From assembly GCA_035516035.1 (NCBI GenBank), contig DATJAS010000029.1:14434-78433 (forward strand): a stretch of DNA of 64,000 nucleotides, read 5' to 3'. Shown in pieces: positions 10,614 through 36,091 of the stretch. Source of the DNA: Bacteroidota bacterium. GTDB lineage: Bacteria > Bacteroidota > Ignavibacteria > UBA10030 > UBA6906. The position numbers and the translations under genes are program-made. Each line of letters starts with the position of its first letter. Position 1 is the first letter of the stretch. Under the pieces are notes generated by a model. That model ran no database searches. It saw nothing but the letters and a program-made list of their open reading frames with translations, and was not told the origin of the DNA.

Positions 10614-12248
10614 GTGATGAGAGAACAAACTGGAGCGTTCCCGGGAGCTGCATCTGCGGCACCCCCCCCGGCCGGCACAGGCCCGGCATCCTGCCCCCCA
10701 TGTACCCCCGATCGAACTGCGGACCAGTTTGCCGACGTCATCACGTGGGCCCCGATCGGCCTTTTCAGGGTCCGCCGGGACGGCTCGTTTGTCGCCGTCA
10801 ACCGTCGCCTCGTCGAGATGCTCGGTTATGCTTCGACGGAAGACCTGCTTGCCCGCAATCTCGGACGGGACGTCTACTTCGACCCCTCCCAGCGCGAGAC
10901 GCTCCTGATGCTTGTGGAATCGCGAGGCACGGAGATCCGTCTTGAAGCCCGCTGGCGGACGAAGGCCGGGGCACCGATATGGGTCGAGCTCACCGGGCAT
11001 GCCATCCCGGGCGATGACGGTTCACACGGCTTCTATGAGGGTCTTGCCGTCGACATCACGGAGAAGAAGGAGCTGGAGGCGCAGTTTCTCCGCGCGCAGC
11101 GGATGGAAAGCATCGGCACGCTCGCCAGCGGCATCGCCCACGACCTGAACAACGTGCTCGCGCCGATCACGATGTCGATCGCGATGCTCCGCGGCAAGAT
11201 CACGGATCCCTCCGGCCTCAAGTGGCTCAACACGATCGACGCGTCCGCGGTGCGGGCCGCGGGGATTGTCAGGCAGGTGCTGAGCTTCGGCAGGGGGGTG
11301 GAGGGGGAGCGCGTTCCCGTGCAGCCGCGGCACATCGTGAACGAAATCGTCAAGATCGCGCGCGAGACGTTCCCGCGGTCCATCACCATCAGCGCCGACG
11401 TGCCGAAGGACCTCTGGCCGATCAACGCCGACCCCACGCAGCTCCACCAGGTGCTGCTCAATCTCTCGGTCAACGCCCGGGACGCAATGCAATCGGGGGG
11501 AACGCTGGGGATCAGCGCCGGGAACATCACGCTGGATGAGCACTACGCCCGGGTTCACATCGACGCAAAACCGGGACGCTACGTCGCGCTGGCGGTCACG
11601 GACTCGGGGACCGGCATTCCCCGGGGTATCCTGGAGAAGATCTTCGATCCGTTCTTCACCACGAAGCCGCCGGGGCAGGGGACGGGGCTGGGCCTCTCCA
11701 CGGTCCAGGCGATCGTCCGGGGGCACGGCGGATTCATGAACGTCTACTCGGAAGAGGCGCGGGGATCGACGTTCCGCGTCTATCTCCCCGTGTGCGAGCA
11801 GGAAGGTGTCGCCGCTTCACGCAGTCCGGAGGCGGTCCTCCCCGCCGGGCGCGGGGAGGCGATCATGGTCGTCGACGATGAGCCTTCGATCCGCGAGATA
11901 ACCCGGGGTATGCTTGAATCGAACGGCTATCGCGCCCTGACCGCCTCCGACGGCGCCGAGGCGCTCACGCTCTACCGACAGAGGCAGGGGGAGATCGCCG
12001 CGGTCATCATCGACCTGATGATGCCGGGCATGGACGGATCGACCGCGATCCGGGCGCTGCGGGGAATCAATCCCGGCGTCCGCATCATCGCCTCCAGCGG
12101 GTTCGGCGCGGAAAACACGGTGGCGGCCGCGGCCGCGCTCGGGGCGGCGCTCTTCCTGCAGAAGCCGTACACCACCGGGACGCTGCTGAGAACGCTCGAT
12201 GAGCTCATTCATCACACCACGAGGGTCGACGAGGGCCATGGACGATAG
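10614..12248 (+). CDS. hybrid sensor histidine kinase / response regulator with PAS domain
   Basis: HisKA H-box (GIAHDLNNVLAPI), HATPase_c G-boxes, C-terminal REC domain (IMVVDDEPSIREI...DLMMPGMDG). Confidence 0.8.
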   Translation: MMREQTGAFPGAASAAPPPAGTGPASCPPCTPDRTADQFADVITWAPIGLFRVRRDGSFVAVNRRLVEMLGYASTEDLLARNLGRDVYFDPSQRETLLMLVESRGTEIRLEARWRTKAGAPIWVELTGHAIPGDDGSHGFYEGLAVDITEKKELEAQFLRAQRMESIGTLASGIAHDLNNVLAPITMSIAMLRGKITDPSGLKWLNTIDASAVRAAGIVRQVLSFGRGVEGERVPVQPRHIVNEIVKIARETFPRSITISADVPKDLWPINADPTQLHQVLLNLSVNARDAMQSGGTLGISAGNITLDEHYARVHIDAKPGRYVALAVTDSGTGIPRGILEKIFDPFFTTKPPGQGTGLGLSTVQAIVRGHGGFMNVYSEEARGSTFRVYLPVCEQEGVAASRSPEAVLPAGRGEAIMVVDDEPSIREITRGMLESNGYRALTASDGAEALTLYRQRQGEIAAVIIDLMMPGMDGSTAIRALRGINPGVRIIASSGFGAENTVAAAAALGAALFLQKPYTTGTLLRTLDELIHHTTRVDEGHGR

Positions 12249-14235
12249 CAGCGGATCTCTTGGCACGCCGCGGGCTCCCGAAGACCTCGCGTTTCTCTCC
12301 CGGACCGCGACCGAATTCGTCGAGATGCTTCCCGAGGCGGATATCTATTCGTACATCTGCGTGCGCCTGCGGGACCTTGTGGGGGGCGTTCCGGTCATCG
12401 TGACGTCCTACGAGAGGGAGGCGCGGGCGTTCACGCTTCGGGCGTTCCAGGGCGCTCCGGAAGTGCTCGGCATGTTCCAGCAGAAGATCGGGGGTTCCCT
12501 GCTCGGCCGCGCGTTCCACCTGAGCGAGAAAGCCGAGCGCCGCCTGTTTGAGAAGAGCATCCACAGGGAGGCAACTGCCGACCTCTACGAGCTGACGGCG
12601 CATTCGTTCCCGGAGCCGATCTGCCGGCGTGCGGAACAGCTCATGAACCTCGGCGCCGTCTACGCGATGGGCTTTATCCGCGGAGAGGAGCTGCTCGGCT
12701 CGGCGAGCATCTATTTCCCGAAGGGAACGGACTTTGAGCCGCGGCAGGTCATTGAGACGTTCATCAAGCAGGCCTCGGTGGCGCTGCAGCGCCGGCGCTC
12801 CGATGAAGCGTTGCGCCGCTCCGTGTCGCTCCTGTCCGCGACGCTCGAATCGACCGCCGACGGCGTCCTCGTAGTCGATACCGCGGGACAGATCGTTCAG
12901 TACAACCACCAGTTTGTTGACATGTGGGGGATGGATGAAGGGATCCTTGCCGGGGGCGACGACGCGCGCGCGATCGGGCACATCCTCTCGCGGCTGAAGT
13001 ACCCCGAGAGGTTCGTCGTGCGCGTGAAAGAGCTTTACGATCACCCCGAGGAGACCAGCTTCGACGTCGTGGAGTTCCTCGACGGCCGGATATTCGAGCG
13101 GTATTCACAGCCCCAGAGGATAGACGGGGTTCCCGTGGGACGGGTCTGGAGCTTCCGCGACGTGACCGAAAGGAAGAGAGCCGAAGCGGAGCTCAAAAAG
13201 AGCGAGCAGCGGTACCGCCAGGTGGTGCATGGAGTGGGGGAGGTCATTTTCGAAACGGACGCGGCGGGGCTCTGGACGCTGCTGAATCCGGCATGGACCG
13301 AGATCACCGGCTTCGGCGTCGAGGAATCGCTCGGCGTCTCGTTCCTGGAGTTCGTTCTCCCGGAGGACCGCGAAAGGAACCTGTCCCTCTTTCGCCCGCT
13401 CATCGAGAGGGAAAAAGACTACTGCCTTCACGAAATCCGCTACAGGACGCGGGATGGGGGCTTCAAATGGATCGAAGTCCATGCCCGGCTCATCCTCGAC
13501 GACGCGGGGGAGTCCAGGGGAACCACCGGCACGCTGCGCGATATCACCGAGCACAAGCGGGCAGCCGAAGAGCTGCGGGTGCTTGTGCAGCAGACCGAAC
13601 GGGACGCGCGCACGAAGGCGGAGCTGCTGAGCGAGGTCAACCACCGCGTTAAGAACAACCTCCTGGCCGTTCAAGGACTCATGCTGGCGGGGAGGCGGCA
13701 GGCCGAGACGGAGGGGCAGCCGGAGGTGGGGCGTGCGATCGACGGCATCGCCTCGAGAATCGAAGGACTCCTGAGCGTGCACAAGCTTCTCTCCTCGAAC
13801 CAGTGGGGCCCGATCCCGGTGAGCCGGCTCGCCGAGACGATTATCGCCCGCGTCGCCTCTGCGGTTGTGGCGGGCGCACGGGTCCGGGTCGACGTGCAGC
13901 CTTCGCCCGTGGAGGTTTCCCCGCGGCAGGCGAGCAGCCTGGCGCTCGTGTTCAACGAGCTTGCCACGAACACGATCAAGCACGCCGTCAACGGCCGGAA
14001 GTCCGCGCGGATCTGTGTCACCGCCATGCTGGAGGGGGACACGATCCGGATCGAATATGCCGACGACGGCCCGGGTTATCCGGAGGATGTCCTCGCCCGC
14101 AGGCGCACTTCCACGGGGATGCATCTTGTCGATCAGATCGTCACCGGGACGCTTCGCGGCAGGATCGAGCTCCAGGAGGGAGAAGGCGCAACGGCGGTCA
14201 TGCACATCAAAATCGAAGAAAGCGGGAGGACCTGA
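12238..14235 (+). CDS. multi-PAS sensor histidine kinase, HisKA_2/HWE-type
   Basis: Several PAS segments. VNHRVKNNLLAVQGLM H-box typical of HisKA_2. ATG at 12238 overlaps the stop of the upstream hybrid kinase. Confidence 0.75.
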   Translation: MDDSSGSLGTPRAPEDLAFLSRTATEFVEMLPEADIYSYICVRLRDLVGGVPVIVTSYEREARAFTLRAFQGAPEVLGMFQQKIGGSLLGRAFHLSEKAERRLFEKSIHREATADLYELTAHSFPEPICRRAEQLMNLGAVYAMGFIRGEELLGSASIYFPKGTDFEPRQVIETFIKQASVALQRRRSDEALRRSVSLLSATLESTADGVLVVDTAGQIVQYNHQFVDMWGMDEGILAGGDDARAIGHILSRLKYPERFVVRVKELYDHPEETSFDVVEFLDGRIFERYSQPQRIDGVPVGRVWSFRDVTERKRAEAELKKSEQRYRQVVHGVGEVIFETDAAGLWTLLNPAWTEITGFGVEESLGVSFLEFVLPEDRERNLSLFRPLIEREKDYCLHEIRYRTRDGGFKWIEVHARLILDDAGESRGTTGTLRDITEHKRAAEELRVLVQQTERDARTKAELLSEVNHRVKNNLLAVQGLMLAGRRQAETEGQPEVGRAIDGIASRIEGLLSVHKLLSSNQWGPIPVSRLAETIIARVASAVVAGARVRVDVQPSPVEVSPRQASSLALVFNELATNTIKHAVNGRKSARICVTAMLEGDTIRIEYADDGPGYPEDVLARRRTSTGMHLVDQIVTGTLRGRIELQEGEGATAVMHIKIEESGRT

Positions 14236-14239
14236 GAGG

Positions 14240-14851
14240 ATGACGGTTCGAAGGAATCTGAGCGTCCTGGTGGCGGAAGACGATGCCCTTGTCTCCGATA
14301 TCATCGAGCATCAGCTCGGCCTGATCGGCTGTGCCGTGGTGGGGAAAGCTTCGGACGGGACGCAGGTCGTCGAGAAATCCCGTGAACTCGCACCGGATAT
14401 CGTCCTGATGGATATCGAGATGCCGGGTCTGGATGGTCTCCAGGCAACCGAGGAGATCCAGCGAACTGCCCCGCGGCCGGTCGTCCTCCTGACGGCGCAC
14501 GAAAGTCCCGACCTGGTCGCCAGGGCGGGGCGGGCGGGAGCCGGCGGGTACCTGGTCAAGCCCACCACGCCGGAGGAGCTGGATCGCACACTGGCGATAG
14601 CTGTGGCAAGATTCAACGACCTGATGGAGCTCAGGCGCCTGAACGAGCAGCTCACGGCCGCCCTGGCCAGCGTAAAAACCCTCTCCGGGCTCCTCCCGAT
14701 TTGCGCCAGCTGCAAGAAAATCAGGGATGACCGGGGATACTGGCTCGCCGTGGAGGCCTATATCATGGGCCACACGGATGCCCGGTTTTCCCACGGCTGC
14801 TGCCCTGAGTGCCGGCAGAAACTCTACCCCGATTTGAGCTCCCGCGGCTGA
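14240..14851 (+). CDS. response regulator (REC domain) with unusual C-terminal Cys-rich tail (CxxC...CPxC)
   Basis: RBS GAGAGGA upstream. REC motifs VAEDD, LMDIEMPGLDG, GYLVKP. Tail LPICASCKKIRDDRGYWLAVEAYIMGHTDARFSHGCCPECRQKLYPD. Confidence 0.8.
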   Translation: MTVRRNLSVLVAEDDALVSDIIEHQLGLIGCAVVGKASDGTQVVEKSRELAPDIVLMDIEMPGLDGLQATEEIQRTAPRPVVLLTAHESPDLVARAGRAGAGGYLVKPTTPEELDRTLAIAVARFNDLMELRRLNEQLTAALASVKTLSGLLPICASCKKIRDDRGYWLAVEAYIMGHTDARFSHGCCPECRQKLYPDLSSRG

Positions 14852-14954
14852 AGGACCGGCAAAACCTCTGCCCCGGTTTGATCTCCGCCGGGTGAAGGAC
14901 CGGCAAAATCTCCGCCCCGGTTTGATCTCCGCCGGCTGAAGGGCCGGCAGAACC
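14848..14954. repeat. 44-bp tandem direct repeat, ~2.5 copies plus a degenerate copy inside the response-regulator 3' end
   Basis: ctgaaggaccggcaaaacctctgccccggtttgatctccgccgg / gtgaaggaccggcaaaatctccgccccggtttgatctccgccgg / ctgaagggccggcagaacc. Last codons of RR (ccccgatttgagctcccgcgg) resemble the unit end. Confidence 0.75.
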
Positions 14955-15062
14955 AACCCCCATCCCCTCGTGTTGCTACACTCAGCATGTCCGGTTTTCT
15001 CTCCCTCGTTCGTTATCAGTGTACAGGCGGCAGAATACAACACATCCAGCGGGGTGAGCATC

Positions 15063-15413
15063 ATGAAGGAATTCCTTCTTCTCTTCAGGGGCGGCAATGA
15101 CATGAGTGCCATGCGGGAGTCGCCCGAAAACTACCAGCAGCACCTCGTCAAATGGAAGGCATGGATGGAAGCCCTCGGGAAACAGGGGAAATTCATCGGC
15201 GGACAGCCCCTTTCGGGTGAGGGAACGGTGATCAGCGGGAGCGAAAAAGTAGTGACCGACGGTCCGTACGTGGAAGGGAAGGAGATCGTCGGAGGGTACC
15301 TGCTTGTCCGGGCGCACGACCTGAAGGAAGCCGTCCAGCTCTCCAGCGGCTGCCCGATATTCGACGCGGACGGCGCCGTCGAAGTCCGGGAAGTCCAGCA
15401 GCTCCAGGCCTGA
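15063..15413 (+). CDS. YciI-like family protein
   Basis: ~116 aa. MKEFLLLFRGG...YLLVRAHDLKEAVQL pattern of YCII-related domain. Immediately upstream of and likely coupled to the ECF sigma factor. Confidence 0.65.
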   Translation: MKEFLLLFRGGNDMSAMRESPENYQQHLVKWKAWMEALGKQGKFIGGQPLSGEGTVISGSEKVVTDGPYVEGKEIVGGYLLVRAHDLKEAVQLSSGCPIFDADGAVEVREVQQLQA

Positions 15414-15414
15414 G

Positions 15415-16701
15415 GTGCGCGAGGGGGCGAACATACCGGTCGTGTCGCTTGTCGACCATCTCTTCCGGCATGAGTCCGGGCGAATGGTCTCTGCGCTGAC
15501 TCGCCTGTTCGGCATACACAACCTGGCGCTCGCCGAGGACGTGGTGCAGGAGGCATTTCTGAAGGCGTGCCAGGAATGGCGGTTGAACCCCATTCCCCCC
15601 AATCCCTCCGCGTGGCTTCTCGTGACGGCCCGGAACCGGGCGATCGACGCGATCCGGCGGAACAGGCACCAGGTCGCGTTCTCGGAGGACATCACGCACC
15701 TGCTGAACTCGGAATACACTACGGCCGGCACGGTGGACGAGATGTTCCTCGATGAGGAAATCGCCGACAGCCAGCTCCGGATGATTTTCACCTGCTGCCA
15801 TCCCGATCTCACGCCGGAGATGCGCATACCCCTCACACTCCGCACACTCTCCGGGTTCGGCATACAGGAAATCGCCGCAGCGCTCCTGACGAACAAGGAA
15901 ACGATCACCAAGCGGCTCTACAGGGCGCGCCAGTCGATCAGGGAGCGTGGAATCCGGTTCGAAATCCCCGTTGGGGACGATCTTGCACCGCGCCTGGACA
16001 CCGTCTACACGGTTCTCTATCTCCTGTTTAACGAGGGATACAATTCGGGGAGGGTCGACGAGCTGATCCGGAAGGACCTCTGCGCTGAGGCGATGCGCCT
16101 GTGCCTCCTGCTGTCGCAGCACAGGATCGGCGATCGGCCCAGCACGTACGCACTCCTCTCGCTGATGTGCTTCCACGCCTCCCGGTTCGACAGCAGGATG
16201 ACGAGCGACAACGAGATCGTTCTGCTGCAGGACCAGGACCGTTCGGCCTGGGACCGTGACCTGATCCGGCGGGGAGAATACTATATCAACAGGGCCGCCG
16301 AGGGGGAGGACGTTTCCGAGTACCACTTAGAGGCCGCGATCTCCGCGCAGTACGCGCTGGCCCCATCGTTCCTGGAAACAGACTGGATATTGATCGCGGG
16401 ACTGTACGACGCGCTCCTGGCGCTGAAATCGAACCCACTTGTGAAGCTCAACAGGGCTGTCGTGCTGGGGAGGATCCACGGACCCCGTGCGGCGATCGAG
16501 GAGATCCGCCGGATCGACGGATTGGACCGCCTCGCCTCCAGGCACTACCTCTACAACGCGGTCCTGGGGCAGTTGTACATCGAGGCGGACGATCACGAGC
16601 ACGCACGGGAGTGCATAACGCGGGCGGGCGCGCTCACGACGTCCGACGCCGAGAGGCGCCTCCTGTCCCGCAAGCTCGAATCCTTGCGTCCCCCGAACTG
16701 A
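15415..16701 (+). CDS. ECF-type RNA polymerase sigma factor with long C-terminal extension (YciI-associated type)
   Basis: GTG start 2 nt after the yciI-like stop. Sigma-70 region 2 (AEDVVQEAFLKA) and region 4 (ETITKRLYRARQSIRE). ~250 aa TPR-like C-terminal extension. Confidence 0.8.
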   Translation: MREGANIPVVSLVDHLFRHESGRMVSALTRLFGIHNLALAEDVVQEAFLKACQEWRLNPIPPNPSAWLLVTARNRAIDAIRRNRHQVAFSEDITHLLNSEYTTAGTVDEMFLDEEIADSQLRMIFTCCHPDLTPEMRIPLTLRTLSGFGIQEIAAALLTNKETITKRLYRARQSIRERGIRFEIPVGDDLAPRLDTVYTVLYLLFNEGYNSGRVDELIRKDLCAEAMRLCLLLSQHRIGDRPSTYALLSLMCFHASRFDSRMTSDNEIVLLQDQDRSAWDRDLIRRGEYYINRAAEGEDVSEYHLEAAISAQYALAPSFLETDWILIAGLYDALLALKSNPLVKLNRAVVLGRIHGPRAAIEEIRRIDGLDRLASRHYLYNAVLGQLYIEADDHEHARECITRAGALTTSDAERRLLSRKLESLRPPN

Positions 16702-16732: not shown

Positions 16733-17140
16733 ATGTCCAAGACCATCGTCCAGACCGTCACGTTCAACGCTCCGCCGGAGAAGCTCTACAGGCTCTACAC
16801 TGATTCGAAACAGCACACCGCCGCGATCGGGGCGAAGTCGATTATCAGCACGAAAGTGGGGGGGCGGTGCGCCGCGTACCAGGAGAGCCTGACCGGCACG
16901 ACGCTCGGCCTGGTCAGGAACAGGCTGTTCGTCCAGACCTGGCGGTCCGACGACTGGACGAAGGATCAGCCGGATTCTGTCCTCACGCTCTTCTTCGAGA
17001 AGGAAGGGAAAGGAGGCCGCCTCACGATGGTCCACGCGAACATCCCCGACGACCACTACCCGGGGATCAAGACCGGCTGGACCACGTACTACTGGGATCC
17101 CTGGAAGAAGTACCTGGCAGGAAAGTCGAAACGAAAATAG
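16733..17140 (+). CDS. SRPBCC / AHSA1 (activator of Hsp90 ATPase homolog)-like domain protein
   Basis: 135 aa. VQTVTFNAPPEKLYRLYTDSKQH...MVHANIP pattern typical of AHSA1/SRPBCC small proteins. Confidence 0.65.
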   Translation: MSKTIVQTVTFNAPPEKLYRLYTDSKQHTAAIGAKSIISTKVGGRCAAYQESLTGTTLGLVRNRLFVQTWRSDDWTKDQPDSVLTLFFEKEGKGGRLTMVHANIPDDHYPGIKTGWTTYYWDPWKKYLAGKSKRK

Positions 17141-28281: not shown

Positions 28282-29841
28282 TTATCTCCCGATCTGTCTC
28301 CGTCTACCCTCTACAGCGGCGGCGAACAGGACCGCTGCCGCGGCCGCGAAGACTGCCGGCGATCCGGCGGCAATCGCCTGCTCTGTCGTTCCCATGAAAT
28401 CGAGCGCCGGGATGTGGTGCAGGGGCCCTGCGTACCAGAGCGCGACATACATCGCTTCGAACGTCCTCGCCGTGCCGCTCCAGACGCCGAGCGCCGCCGC
28501 AAGCGAAGGGATAAACAGTGCTCCCGCCCCGAGCGAAATGAGTGTTCCGGTATCCCCGGCCGCAGCCAGCCGGAATATGAGGCCCGAGGCCGCAATGAGT
28601 GCAACCGCGAATCCCGCCCCCCATACCGCCATAAACTGCCGGGCGAGCGGTCGCGGGGCGGAGAAGAGGATGCCTCCTGTCCTGTGGCGCGCCTCCCTCG
28701 TACCCATCTGTGACCAGAGTAGGACCGGCAGGAGCCAGAGGGACGGAAGGACGTCTGCTCGAACGGCATCGATGCTGAGTGTCAGGGAGGCAACCCAGAG
28801 CCCGGTCCCCGCAACGTACCACCACCAGGGTAGGCCCCACAGCATGAGCCGGGTCTCCGCCATGAGCATCCGGGAATATACCCAGGGGGCGGCGGCTGAA
28901 TCGAGCATCCTGCCTGCGACATTGGGGATGCCGCGCACGCGAGTGAGCCACGCACGGGAGGAGCGCGTCTTCTTCGCGCGCGAGTGTCTCTCGCCGCGGG
29001 CCGGAGCGAACCTGTCAAAGAAGAACCCCCCGGCGAGCGCAAGCGCCCCCGCGTAGAGGAGAGGCAGAGCCCTGCCCGCTGCCTCCGCGGCGTTCCAATC
29101 TATCCCTTCCCACCGGACGTCCGTCGTCTTCGCGTACCTGGTTGCGCTCGTCCCGATCGTGAAATGTCCGTCGTAGTCGGGGACGGCAGCCCTGACATCC
29201 GCCTGCAACCTCTCCATGGCGAGATTCAGCCCGTACACATCGAGCGCTCGTGAACCCGTCGCCATCGGCAGCATCAGGAGGAGCGTGAAAAGGAAGATAT
29301 AGAGAACAGTGCCGAACACGCCGCGGAGGAACCGCACGCATTCAAAAAAGACCGCCAGCGCTCCCGTGAATACCATCGCCGGGAGCGCCAGGAGGAGGAA
29401 CGGTGAAAGAAGCGGCCACACCTCGAAGCCCGTTCCTTCGAACGCCTGTATCAACATGCCTCCCGCGGCAAGTATGCACGTGACGGCGGCAAGCACGACG
29501 AAGTTGCTCAGCGCCTTCCCCAGCACGTACATCAGGCTGCTCATCGACGTTGCGGCCAGTATCTGCCCCACCCCGGTTTCCCGGTCGCGCGCGACCGCAT
29601 TGCTGACGACGTAGAACCCGACCATGCAGACAAACGTGATCGTGCAGAGCGCCATCATCATGCCCGTCCACGCCGACGTGGGGAGCGGGCGGGCCCGTCC
29701 CAGGTGAACGCCGACCGTCCCGCTGTCCACCAGGTATCCGAGGTAAAGCGTTGCCACGACCGTGACGAGAAAACTGTAGCGCCTCGTCCGTTCCAGCACG
29801 TCCGCCCTGACGAGCCACGCGAGCCCCCTCCAGCTTCTCAT
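28282..29841 (-). CDS. ABC-2 type exporter permease (polytopic membrane protein)
   Basis: ~10 predicted TM helices. Directly downstream of ABC ATPase on the same strand. RBS GAGGAGG before internal Met. Confidence 0.55.
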   Translation of the reverse strand: MRSWRGLAWLVRADVLERTRRYSFLVTVVATLYLGYLVDSGTVGVHLGRARPLPTSAWTGMMMALCTITFVCMVGFYVVSNAVARDRETGVGQILAATSMSSLMYVLGKALSNFVVLAAVTCILAAGGMLIQAFEGTGFEVWPLLSPFLLLALPAMVFTGALAVFFECVRFLRGVFGTVLYIFLFTLLLMLPMATGSRALDVYGLNLAMERLQADVRAAVPDYDGHFTIGTSATRYAKTTDVRWEGIDWNAAEAAGRALPLLYAGALALAGGFFFDRFAPARGERHSRAKKTRSSRAWLTRVRGIPNVAGRMLDSAAAPWVYSRMLMAETRLMLWGLPWWWYVAGTGLWVASLTLSIDAVRADVLPSLWLLPVLLWSQMGTREARHRTGGILFSAPRPLARQFMAVWGAGFAVALIAASGLIFRLAAAGDTGTLISLGAGALFIPSLAAALGVWSGTARTFEAMYVALWYAGPLHHIPALDFMGTTEQAIAAGSPAVFAAAAAVLFAAAVEGRRRQIGR

Positions 29842-29946
29842 GGAGCAGCCTCCTCGTGCGGCGAAAAGCCCGGCGCGGCGATTCCGCCGCGGGGGCACCG
29901 CGAGTCAGTCGTCATCATCCGGCCTCCGCTTTCACGTGCGAGGTCG

Positions 29947-30831
29947 TCATGATCCGGGCTCCGCTTTTGCGCGCGAGACCGCCAGCAGGTAGGCGTCCTC
30001 GAGCGTCGGAGCCGCCGGTCGGGCGCCGGGGCCAGGCGCCTCGGCTGAGATGACGCGGCAGAGCACCCCGTCATTTCGCCGCAGCGTCCCGCTCAGGAGG
30101 AAGCGCGATCGCACGGATGAGAGGTCTCCGCCCGGGATCGTCCACTCCCAGACGCTCCCCGATGCCCGGTTCAGAATCGCCCCGGGCTGCTCGTGCGCAA
30201 CGAGTCGCCCCCGCACGATGATGGCAATGTCCGTTGCCACCGACTCGACGTCGGGGACGATGTGCGTCGAGAGGATGACGATGCGTTCGCCTGAGAGGTC
30301 GGCGAGGAGATTCCGAAAACGGACGCGCTCCTCGGGATCGAGACCCGCGGTCGGCTCATCCACGATGAGAAGACGGGGATCGTTCAGCAGCCCCTGTGCG
30401 ATGCCCACGCGCTGCCGCATTCCCCCGGAGAATCCCCCCAGGCGCTGGTCCCGCTGGCCGGTGAGATTGACCAGGAGGAGCAGTTCGTCGATGCGTGATC
30501 TGGCCGTCGCGGCGGCCAGGCCTTTCGCGGCGGCGACATACGACAGAAACGCGACCGGCGTCAGGTTGGGATACACGCCGAAATCCTGCGGCAGGTATCC
30601 GAGCACGTTTCTCAGCCCGTCAGGGGAGCGGGCGGTGTCGACGCCGTCCCATGTCACCGTGCCTTCGGTCGGCCGCGAGACAGTCGCGAGGATTCGCATG
30701 AGCGTCGACTTCCCGGCCCCGTTCGGGCCAAGGAGCCCGAGGACGCCGGGAGAGAGCGTGAGCGAGAAATCTCTCAGCCCCCAGACGTTCGACTTGTAGC
30801 GCTTGCTGACGCTGCTGATGGCGAGGTTCAT
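29947..30831 (-). CDS. ABC transporter ATP-binding protein
   Basis: Walker A GPNGAGKST, signature FSGGMRQRVGIAQGL, Walker B LLIVDEPTAGLD. Confidence 0.85.
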   Translation of the reverse strand: MNLAISSVSKRYKSNVWGLRDFSLTLSPGVLGLLGPNGAGKSTLMRILATVSRPTEGTVTWDGVDTARSPDGLRNVLGYLPQDFGVYPNLTPVAFLSYVAAAKGLAAATARSRIDELLLLVNLTGQRDQRLGGFSGGMRQRVGIAQGLLNDPRLLIVDEPTAGLDPEERVRFRNLLADLSGERIVILSTHIVPDVESVATDIAIIVRGRLVAHEQPGAILNRASGSVWEWTIPGGDLSSVRSRFLLSGTLRRNDGVLCRVISAEAPGPGARPAAPTLEDAYLLAVSRAKAEPGS

Positions 30832-34985: not shown

Positions 34986-35156
34986 GGGGCCACCCGGTGA
35001 TCCAATAGGTCAGTCAATGTACCGAGCGAATCGTCCATCGGCAACAGGCATCCCGTTTCAGCCGGTGTCTGCCCCGGATGACAGGTTTTTGCGCGGTGCA
35101 GGAGAGCGTGCGGCGGTGGACATTCGCGAAACCTTCCCCTACATTTCACGTACCCC

Positions 35157-35280
35157 GATCATCGATGCCCGACCATTCACGTAGCTTGATCATCAATAGC
35201 CGACCATTCGCGTACTTCGACCATCGATACCCGACTATTCACGTACACTGATCATCGGTATCCGACACTCCCATGCCTGA
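35157..35280. repeat. 31-bp direct repeat x4 immediately upstream of, and overlapping the start codon of, the LCM-family methyltransferase
   Basis: gatcatcgatgcccgaccattcacgtagctt / gatcatcaatagccgaccattcgcgtacttc / gaccatcgatacccgactattcacgtacact / gatcatcggtatccgacactcccATGcctga. Confidence 0.75.
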
Positions 35281-36091
35281 AAAACTTGCGGTTCCTCTTG
35301 GCGAAGTCCAGAAGACGTTGTTCCTCCCCCTCTGGGGGCGCGCCGTCGAAACAAAGAAAGACCGCCCGCTCCTCTCGGACCCGACGGCCGTGAGAATCAT
35401 GGAGAGCGTGGAGTTCGATTTTGCCACGCTCGCCGGCAACCTGAAGAGCATCACGCAGCACGCCTGGATCGCGCGGAGCCTCCTCGTCGACCGCTGCGTG
35501 GCGGAATTCCTCCGGACATCGCCCGATGGCACGGTCGTCAACATCGGCTGCGGCATGGACACGACGTTCGACCGGGTCGACAACGGGAGCGTCCGCTGGT
35601 TTGATCTTGACCTGCCGGACGTCATCGCGCTGAGAAGAAAGTTCATTGACGAATCCCCGCGGAGAACGTTCATCGCGTCGTCGTTCCAGGACGACGCGTG
35701 GTTCGCGAATGTGCCGGCCGGTCGCGGGCTCATGTTCGTCGCGGCAGGCGTATTCTACTATTATGAAGCTCACGACGTCCGGGAATTCTTCGTGAGGCTG
35801 GCAGATCGGTTCCCGGGGTGCGCCGTCGTCTTTGACGCGGCGTCTCCCCGGGGGGTGGAAGCGGCGAACAGGCTGGTCCTGCGCGCGGGGGGGCTGGGAG
35901 AGGGGACCCCGCTCAGGTGGGGACTGAAAACCGCCGCCGAGCTCTCGTCCTGGGATTCCCGGATACGCGTCGTGTGCGAGCATCTGTACTTCAGGGAGGC
36001 GGGACTTCGCCTCCCGTTCCGGGACCGGATCACGGGCATGCTCTCCGACGCGCTGCGCATACAGTGGATCGTCCACTGCAGTTTCGGTTGA
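35273..36091 (+). CDS. class I SAM-dependent O-methyltransferase, LCM/TcmP family
   Basis: VVNIGCGMDTTFDRV motif characteristic of the leucine carboxyl methyltransferase / TcmP family. 272 aa. Confidence 0.7.
   Translation: MPEKLAVPLGEVQKTLFLPLWGRAVETKKDRPLLSDPTAVRIMESVEFDFATLAGNLKSITQHAWIARSLLVDRCVAEFLRTSPDGTVVNIGCGMDTTFDRVDNGSVRWFDLDLPDVIALRRKFIDESPRRTFIASSFQDDAWFANVPAGRGLMFVAAGVFYYYEAHDVREFFVRLADRFPGCAVVFDAASPRGVEAANRLVLRAGGLGEGTPLRWGLKTAAELSSWDSRIRVVCEHLYFREAGLRLPFRDRITGMLSDALRIQWIVHCSFG

Follow-up and report, generated by a model that had tools for sequence, protein, structure and literature searches.

A tandem array of a 44-nt unit lies across the stop codon of a response-regulator (RR) gene in the window (the whole 64-kb stretch of DNA analyzed here). 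Very probably, the array is a decaying tandem duplication of the 3′-terminal part of that gene, is specific to one lineage, and is most likely functionless. The unit is present 3.2 times head-to-tail at 14812-14954 (TRF: period 44, 85% matches, no indels, score 202), with a constant period (44, 44, 44), 0% indels, and no spacer between units. This score is the highest among the repeats of the window (runner-up, 139), and the maximum across 40 dinucleotide-preserving shuffles of the window was 67; the array is statistically real. It is the same array that the original prediction had placed behind the RR gene, as two full copies and one partial copy starting at 14848. Its existence was confirmed, and its register and start were revised, with a complete third unit inside the gene and the first base at 14812. 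Features are given by position in the window:

12199-14235: PAS/HWE-type histidine kinase gene, with the RR gene 4 nt downstream.
14240-14851, + strand: RR gene, 203 aa (REC domain, long linker helix, and Cys-rich C-terminal module); stop codon at 14849-14851.
14812-14855, + strand: copy 0, the original unit; comprises the final base of the Cys191 codon, codons 192-203 (RQKLYPDLSSRG), TGA, and 4 nt (AGGA).
14815-14820, + strand: proximal microhomology GCAGAA, inside the RR gene (Arg-Gln-Lys codons); distal partner at 14947-14952.
14856-14899, + strand: copy 1, a non-coding duplicate; 36/44 identical in register to copy 0; equivalent frame RQNLCPGLISAG, then stop.
14900-14943, + strand: copy 2, a non-coding duplicate; 40/44 identical in register to copy 1 and 35/44 to copy 0; equivalent frame RQNLRPGLISAG, then stop.
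14944-14954, + strand: 11-nt stub CCGGCAGAACC, the "partial fourth copy"; ancestral downstream sequence, CCGCAGAACC in relatives.
14955-14987, + strand: unique post-array sequence AACCCCCATCCCCTCGTGTTGCTACACTCAGCA, whose ortholog in relatives directly follows the stop codon; ends at a deletion of ~91 nt.
15063-15413: YCII-domain gene, downstream of the RR gene.
15415-16701: gene for an ECF-type sigma factor with DUF6596, downstream of the YCII gene.
16733-17140: AHSA1-domain gene, downstream of the sigma factor gene.

The RR protein matches Pfam Response_reg over residues 9-116 (E value, 1.3e-25) and belongs to a family of 4,442 proteins at an E value of ≤1e-10, with a typical length of ~200-210 aa (203 aa in the window). 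In a 28-sequence alignment, the family C terminus consists of a conserved Cys-rich module ending in ...H-G-x-C-P-E-C-x-x-K-L-Y-P, followed by ~4-17 variable residues; L195, Y196, and P197 are each ≥90% conserved in the 28 aligned members. Copy 0 encodes R192-G203 and the stop codon (tail R-Q-K-L-Y-P-D...). Because this tail is conserved in the family and the protein is of normal length, copy 0 is the ancestral coding sequence, and the RR protein is unaltered by the repeat. The claim that the final RR codons are themselves a diverged copy of the unit was borne out, with homology that spans the complete in-gene unit.

Relatives carry the gene end in single copy. No repeat was present at orthologous loci with RR identities of 90% (L007 and L008), 85% (L013), 82% (L009-L012), and 72% (L014 and L015), and a repeat at the stop codon was found in 0/80 other family loci from species-representative genomes. 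The nearest species-representative RR (74% identical and labelled Ignavibacteriota) is likewise without the array; the NCBI label on the window protein's own record is Bacteroidota. When 14856-14943 was deleted in silico, colinearity of the window with L007, L013, and L009 extended from the gene end up to and including GCAGAACCAACCCC...GTGTTGC, and the intergenic alignment with relatives was made after the array had been collapsed in this way. After the stop codon, L007, L013, and L009 have 7 to 8 C-rich nt (CCCTCCCC, TCCCCCC, and CCCACCCC) and then GCAGAACCAA(C/T)CCC...CCCCGTGTT, a string that in the window also follows the array (CCGGCAGAACCAACCCCCATCCCCTCGTGTTGC).

The short repeat GCAGAA occurs in the gene (R-Q-K codons) and again just after the stop codon in the unduplicated L013 and L009 (the in-gene form in L007 is GAAGAA). 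In L013 the two occurrences are 44 nt apart, in both L007 and L009 the distance is 45 nt, and in the window the repeat recurs every 44 nt. Because the pair in relatives is spaced 44-45 nt apart, the stub is the original distal short repeat and not a truncated copy. The idea that the array is a remnant of a 3′-end duplication, one of the readings first offered for it, is thus upheld by the single copy in relatives, the colinearity restored by collapse, and the identity of the period with the spacing of the direct repeats.

Tandem duplication between short direct repeats is established for spontaneous duplications, and E. coli genes provide described cases of spontaneous duplication and deletion by slipped-strand mispairing or illegitimate recombination. 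From the geometry of the locus, we infer a slippage mechanism with a microhomology of 6 nt (5/6 in L007). Slippage or unequal exchange between the GCAGAA repeats would have duplicated the intervening 44 nt, yielding copy 0 and a proto-copy. The unselected proto-copy would then have drifted and gained the six differences from copy 0 that are now common to copies 1 and 2; a second duplication, of the proto-copy, would have yielded copies 1 and 2, with 2-4 further differences since. The extra copies would be untranslated 3′ sequence, eroded by point mutation, and with the stop codon inside the duplicated unit, the RR protein would never have changed.

Several features of the copies bear on this history. 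Copies 1 and 2 each differ from copy 0 at 8-9 sites; they share six differences from it and differ from each other at four unit positions (10, 14, 37, and 44; two differences in the L004/L006 haplotype), and this combination of six shared and few private differences suggests that the duplication took place in two steps. At unit positions 7, 14, 15, and 37, where four relatives are unanimous, the derived base is found in copy 1 and/or copy 2 and never in copy 0; at unit position 33, copy 0 keeps the outgroup state, with 3/4 relatives in agreement. Between copies 0 and 1, 6/8 nucleotide differences are non-synonymous in the equivalent frame, and family-conserved residues are changed in the extra copies (K194N, Y196C/R, and D198G overall; K194N, Y196C, and D198G in copy 1). 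This pattern fits extra copies that evolve without constraint alongside a copy 0 maintained by selection at the protein level.

Directly after the stop codon, the window has 4 nt (AGGA/AGGG) that differ fully from the CCCT/TCC/CCCA of relatives, so the spacer changed in the window lineage before or during the duplication. Farther downstream, ~91 nt present in L007 (~1335-1430) and L013 (~862-955) are missing in the window at the 14986/14988 junction; the missing stretch holds an 8-bp GC stem-loop that lies 3′ of the RR gene (CGGCGGG-N4-CCGCCGG). Without this hairpin, transcription from the kinase-RR genes may read through into the sigma operon. The duplication may have formed part of a single complex rearrangement together with the ~91-nt loss, or selection may have acted to compensate for the lost hairpin.

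For the reading frame, the array is neutral. A TGA is found at an equal offset in every 44-nt unit, behind each of the encoded tails listed above, and in the RR frame beyond the stop codon the next TGA comes after 9 codons. Since the TGA keeps its register from unit to unit, the open reading frame cannot be lengthened by gain or loss of units, and in-register exchange always yields 203 aa; the expectation that expansion or contraction would extend the open reading frame was therefore wrong. Whole-unit gain or loss downstream of copy 0 leaves the RR protein unchanged. Judged from the layout of the units, exchange inside copy 0 would be the sole route by which up to 12 terminal residues could be swapped, and length would stay constant. 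No tail-swapped RR variant is recorded, and clustering at 90% identity leaves the window protein as the single member sequence of its cluster (P0001).

Six further contigs that span the array (L001-L004, L006, and L099; six sample/run accessions and three sources, ENA, JGI, and Logan) show an identical structure, and 7/7 sequences including the window have 3.2 copies, which is a shallow test of copy-number stability, given that the contigs compared are ≤0.3% apart and the samples possibly related. L099 was found via the YCII gene. Samples in which this population occurs are ERZ27256514, ERZ27256617, ERZ27256612, JGI 3300032783 and 3300033158, SRR8881010, and SRR8881011. All array contigs encode an RR protein identical to that of the window, and the TRF array is confined to contigs encoding this identical protein. 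Within the 291 nt around the array, there are only 2 polymorphic sites (14909 and 14913), both in copy 2, and at both of them L004 and L006 read as copy 1. Divergence between copies (9-20%) stands against ≤0.3% between strains; with copies so much more diverged than strains, the copies are not being homogenized. The same copy number across strains, with the downstream context conserved, had been named in advance as the outcome that would speak against a variable region, and this is what was found for the strains at hand.

As a separate observation on strain variation, single nucleotide polymorphisms (SNPs) relative to L002 are clustered, with 5 in 70 nt (window 10856-10925) and 9 in 67 nt (window 17044-17110). 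This clustering suggests short recombination tracts between strains, not scattered point mutation.

A segment whose presence varies between relatives has the array at its left edge. The YCII and ECF-sigma (DUF6596) pair (15063-16701) is found between the RR and AHSA1 genes in the window, L007, and L013. In L009-L012 and in L014 and L015 (82% and 72% RR identity, respectively), the pair is missing and AHSA1 directly follows the RR gene. YCII/ECF-sigma is a two-gene presence/absence polymorphism. A link between the array and the insertion of this pair was considered and rejected: the segment also occurs in L007 and L013, which carry no array, and the two events are thus independent of each other.

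A conserved motif, TGTCCGGTTTT-N8-CGTTCGTTATCAG, is located at 14988-15019, ~45 nt upstream of the YCII start, and can be aligned in L007, L013, and L014; in L014, which has no YCII/sigma gene, it lies upstream of AHSA1. The motif has a GTT...CGT pattern, which we take to be that of an ECF-type promoter. It looks like a putative ECF-type promoter and is possibly the autoregulated promoter of the sigma operon.

A phase- or length-variable region had been proposed for the array, and a contingency locus in which frequent gain or loss of the 44-nt unit alters the RR C terminus or its expression is highly improbable. Contingency loci (Neisseria, Haemophilus, and Campylobacter) have units of 1-9 nt in many near-identical copies, in 5′-coding or promoter positions, and act by shifts of frame or spacing. 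The array is like them in that a repeat tract touches the reading frame at the coding end, and the sole two polymorphic sites in 291 nt, copy-1-like in L004 and L006, could reflect exchange between copies. Two transitions from a copy-1-like ancestral copy 2 would account equally well for these SNPs, however, and SNPs cluster elsewhere in these contigs too. Against variability stand the uniform count in all seven sequences, the divergence of the copies relative to the strains with no sign of concerted evolution, and the fixed length of the open reading frame with no tail-swapped protein on record. In its 44-nt unit, three diverged copies, location at the 3′ end, in-register stop codon, and absence of a frame effect, the array is unlike contingency loci, and known slippage-prone tracts are unlike its long unit and few copies. 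None of three hallmarks of such loci (variable number, frame or promoter switching, and homogeneous copies) was found in it.

MIRUs occur at many genomic loci, and it is extremely improbable that a dispersed intergenic repeat of this kind, or a REP- or BIME-like one, provided the final codons and the stop codon by inserting at the end of the gene. The 44-nt size and the location abutting a two-component gene do recall MIRUs (PMC4213456). The senX3-regX3 MIRU-VNTRs of Mycobacterium tuberculosis are intergenic and consist of 77-bp and 53-bp units (three 77-bp units in H37Rv; two 77-bp units and one 53-bp unit in CDC1551) (PMC4213456). Like the array, they are tandem units of tens of bp that adjoin a two-component gene and precede the next gene; they are strain variable, with promoter activity reported (PMC4213456), whereas the array has an invariant number, one locus, a gene-derived unit, and no promoter signal. 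A search of the 64-kb window with a 36-nt stretch of copy 1 (≤3 mismatches) gave no other copies of the unit, and its 21-nt core had 0 matches in 185,579 species genomes. The single match to that core in a metagenome collection (L016) was rejected as chance (inside an unrelated open reading frame, opposite strand). The residues of copy 0 are also encoded by repeat-free relatives, so the gene gave rise to the unit; neither multiple loci nor independence from coding sequence, which mark MIRU and REP elements, was observed. A CRISPR array was also rejected, as the units abut directly with no spacers. An assembly artefact (a mis-joined or over-expanded repeat), named at the outset as a way in which the feature could fall, has a negligible probability. 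Short-read metagenome assemblies can mishandle repeats, but the six contigs from six different accessions rule this out here, with the same structure in ENA (MEGAHIT-style k141 names), JGI, and Logan assemblies, and the copies differ at enough sites for unique placement.

A cis-regulatory role is unlikely, whether as a terminator, attenuator, or stabilizer that replaces the lost hairpin or as an upstream or binding-site array for the ECF-type promoter ~35 nt downstream. Consistent with such a role, the 8-bp GC hairpin that follows the gene in L007 and L013 is missing from the window, a 7-bp stem (GCCGGCU-GAAG-GGCCGGC) can form where copy 2 meets the stub, 33 nt separate the end of the array from the conserved promoter-like motif, and promoter activity has been reported for the senX3-regX3 MIRU repeats (PMC4213456). 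The RNA fold of the array, however, was no better than that of shuffles (z = 0.05; single units, z = 0.04 to 1.2), no terminator-like site or U-tract was present in 14852-14990, no sigma-70-like promoter was found in or beside the array, and there were 0 Rfam covariance-model matches at an E value of ≤1 in 14600-15200. Of the partial dyads pointed out earlier, the sequence ccggtttgatctccgccgg is indeed present twice (14874-14892 and 14918-14936) and amounts only to CCGG...CCGG with an 11-nt loop, in an array that folds at the level of shuffled sequence. The downstream gene order and the promoter-like motif are also found in L007 and L013, which have no array, and this arrangement therefore does not depend on the array; moreover, the unit is fully explained as copied coding sequence, and no recognized DNA-binding domain was found in the RR. 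Intrinsic terminators and REP hairpins are like the array in being located directly 3′ of a stop codon and in their GC-rich CCGG motifs; the array differs from intrinsic terminators in having no stem-loop beyond shuffles and no U-tract, and the hairpin of the relatives is at another, non-homologous position. Two resemblances were set aside: the unit core CCGGTTTGATCTCC agrees by eye with the promoter-like motif CCGGTTTTCTCTCC at 14/19 positions, and a 13-nt stretch of copy 1 (TCTCCGCCGGGTG) matches the L013 hairpin, the L013-specific bases of which are absent in L007. Both were treated as chance GC-rich similarity because the unit is fully explained by copy 0.

Argued from these computational negatives, the extra copies are most likely functionless. 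It is very unlikely that copies 1 and 2 act as a putative 3′-untranslated region (UTR) or inter-operon element replacing the lost hairpin or as silent cassettes that recombine into the gene and swap the last 12 residues of the Cys-rich output module. If true, a 3′-UTR element would set the read-through from the kinase-RR operon into the ECF-sigma operon.

Duplication of the gene end between short direct repeats, the preferred reading, also places the array within a known kind. Every testable feature of a microhomology-bounded tandem duplication was found (head-to-tail units, single-copy relatives, and a flanking direct repeat). Duplications of the E. coli type between short direct repeats are alike in their spacerless copies, a repeat spacing equal to the period, and a pre-duplication state in relatives. 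Nothing essential differs from a typical short-repeat duplication; here, the microhomology is 6 nt, there was a second round, drift has been substantial, and the duplication is old and fixed.

The protein that ends in the array has a C-terminal part that is of note in its own right. RR residues ~150-203 (window 14690-14851) form an unannotated Cys-rich output module, LLPICAsCKKIRDDxGYWxxvExYIxxHtdAxFSHGxCPEC..KLYP, in which C155, C158, H185, C188, and C191 are invariant. The module had no Pfam, NCBIfam, or PDB sequence match, and a literature search for the motif CKKIRD found no paper. The family (>4,400 members) occurs in metagenome-assembled genomes (MAGs) labelled Ignavibacteriota, Anaerolineae, Desulfobacterales, Nitrospirota, Verrucomicrobiota, and others. 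In an AlphaFold model of the RR (28 sequences), the predicted REC domain and linker are confident, and the Cys-rich module and tail have a pLDDT of 45-66; at this low confidence, the model is uninformative on the duplicated tail. The module looks like a widespread uncharacterized RR output domain and is probably metal binding.

Two other repeats were observed in the window. A 31-nt unit, TTCACGTACCCCGATCATCGATACCCGACCA, is present 3.9 times at 35145-35266 (TRF score 139), ending 7 nt before the ATG of an open reading frame at 35273-36091 (+ strand). The consensus and one copy of this unit contain the palindrome ATCGAT, with one-base variants in the other copies, and the array could be operator- or iteron-like. 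A 35-nt unit is present 2 times (85% matches) at 29908-29977, where it spans the gap between minus-strand open reading frames at 28282-29898 and 29947-30831 and overlaps the 3′ end of the second one.

The array is thus a genuine and unremarkable feature, a decaying 3′-end duplication that is fixed and restricted to one lineage. It offers a clear natural case of a microhomology-bounded tandem duplication, with the "before" state surviving in sister lineages, and carries little weight for biology; when the stop codon lies within the duplicated stretch, the protein shows no trace of the event. For annotators, stop register should be checked before repeats that overlap a stop codon are called switches. 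The array could be used as a lineage marker for this Ignavibacteriota/Bacteroidota-like population. The neighborhood is of more interest than the array itself, owing to the Cys-rich RR output module and the presence/absence polymorphism of YCII/ECF-sigma.
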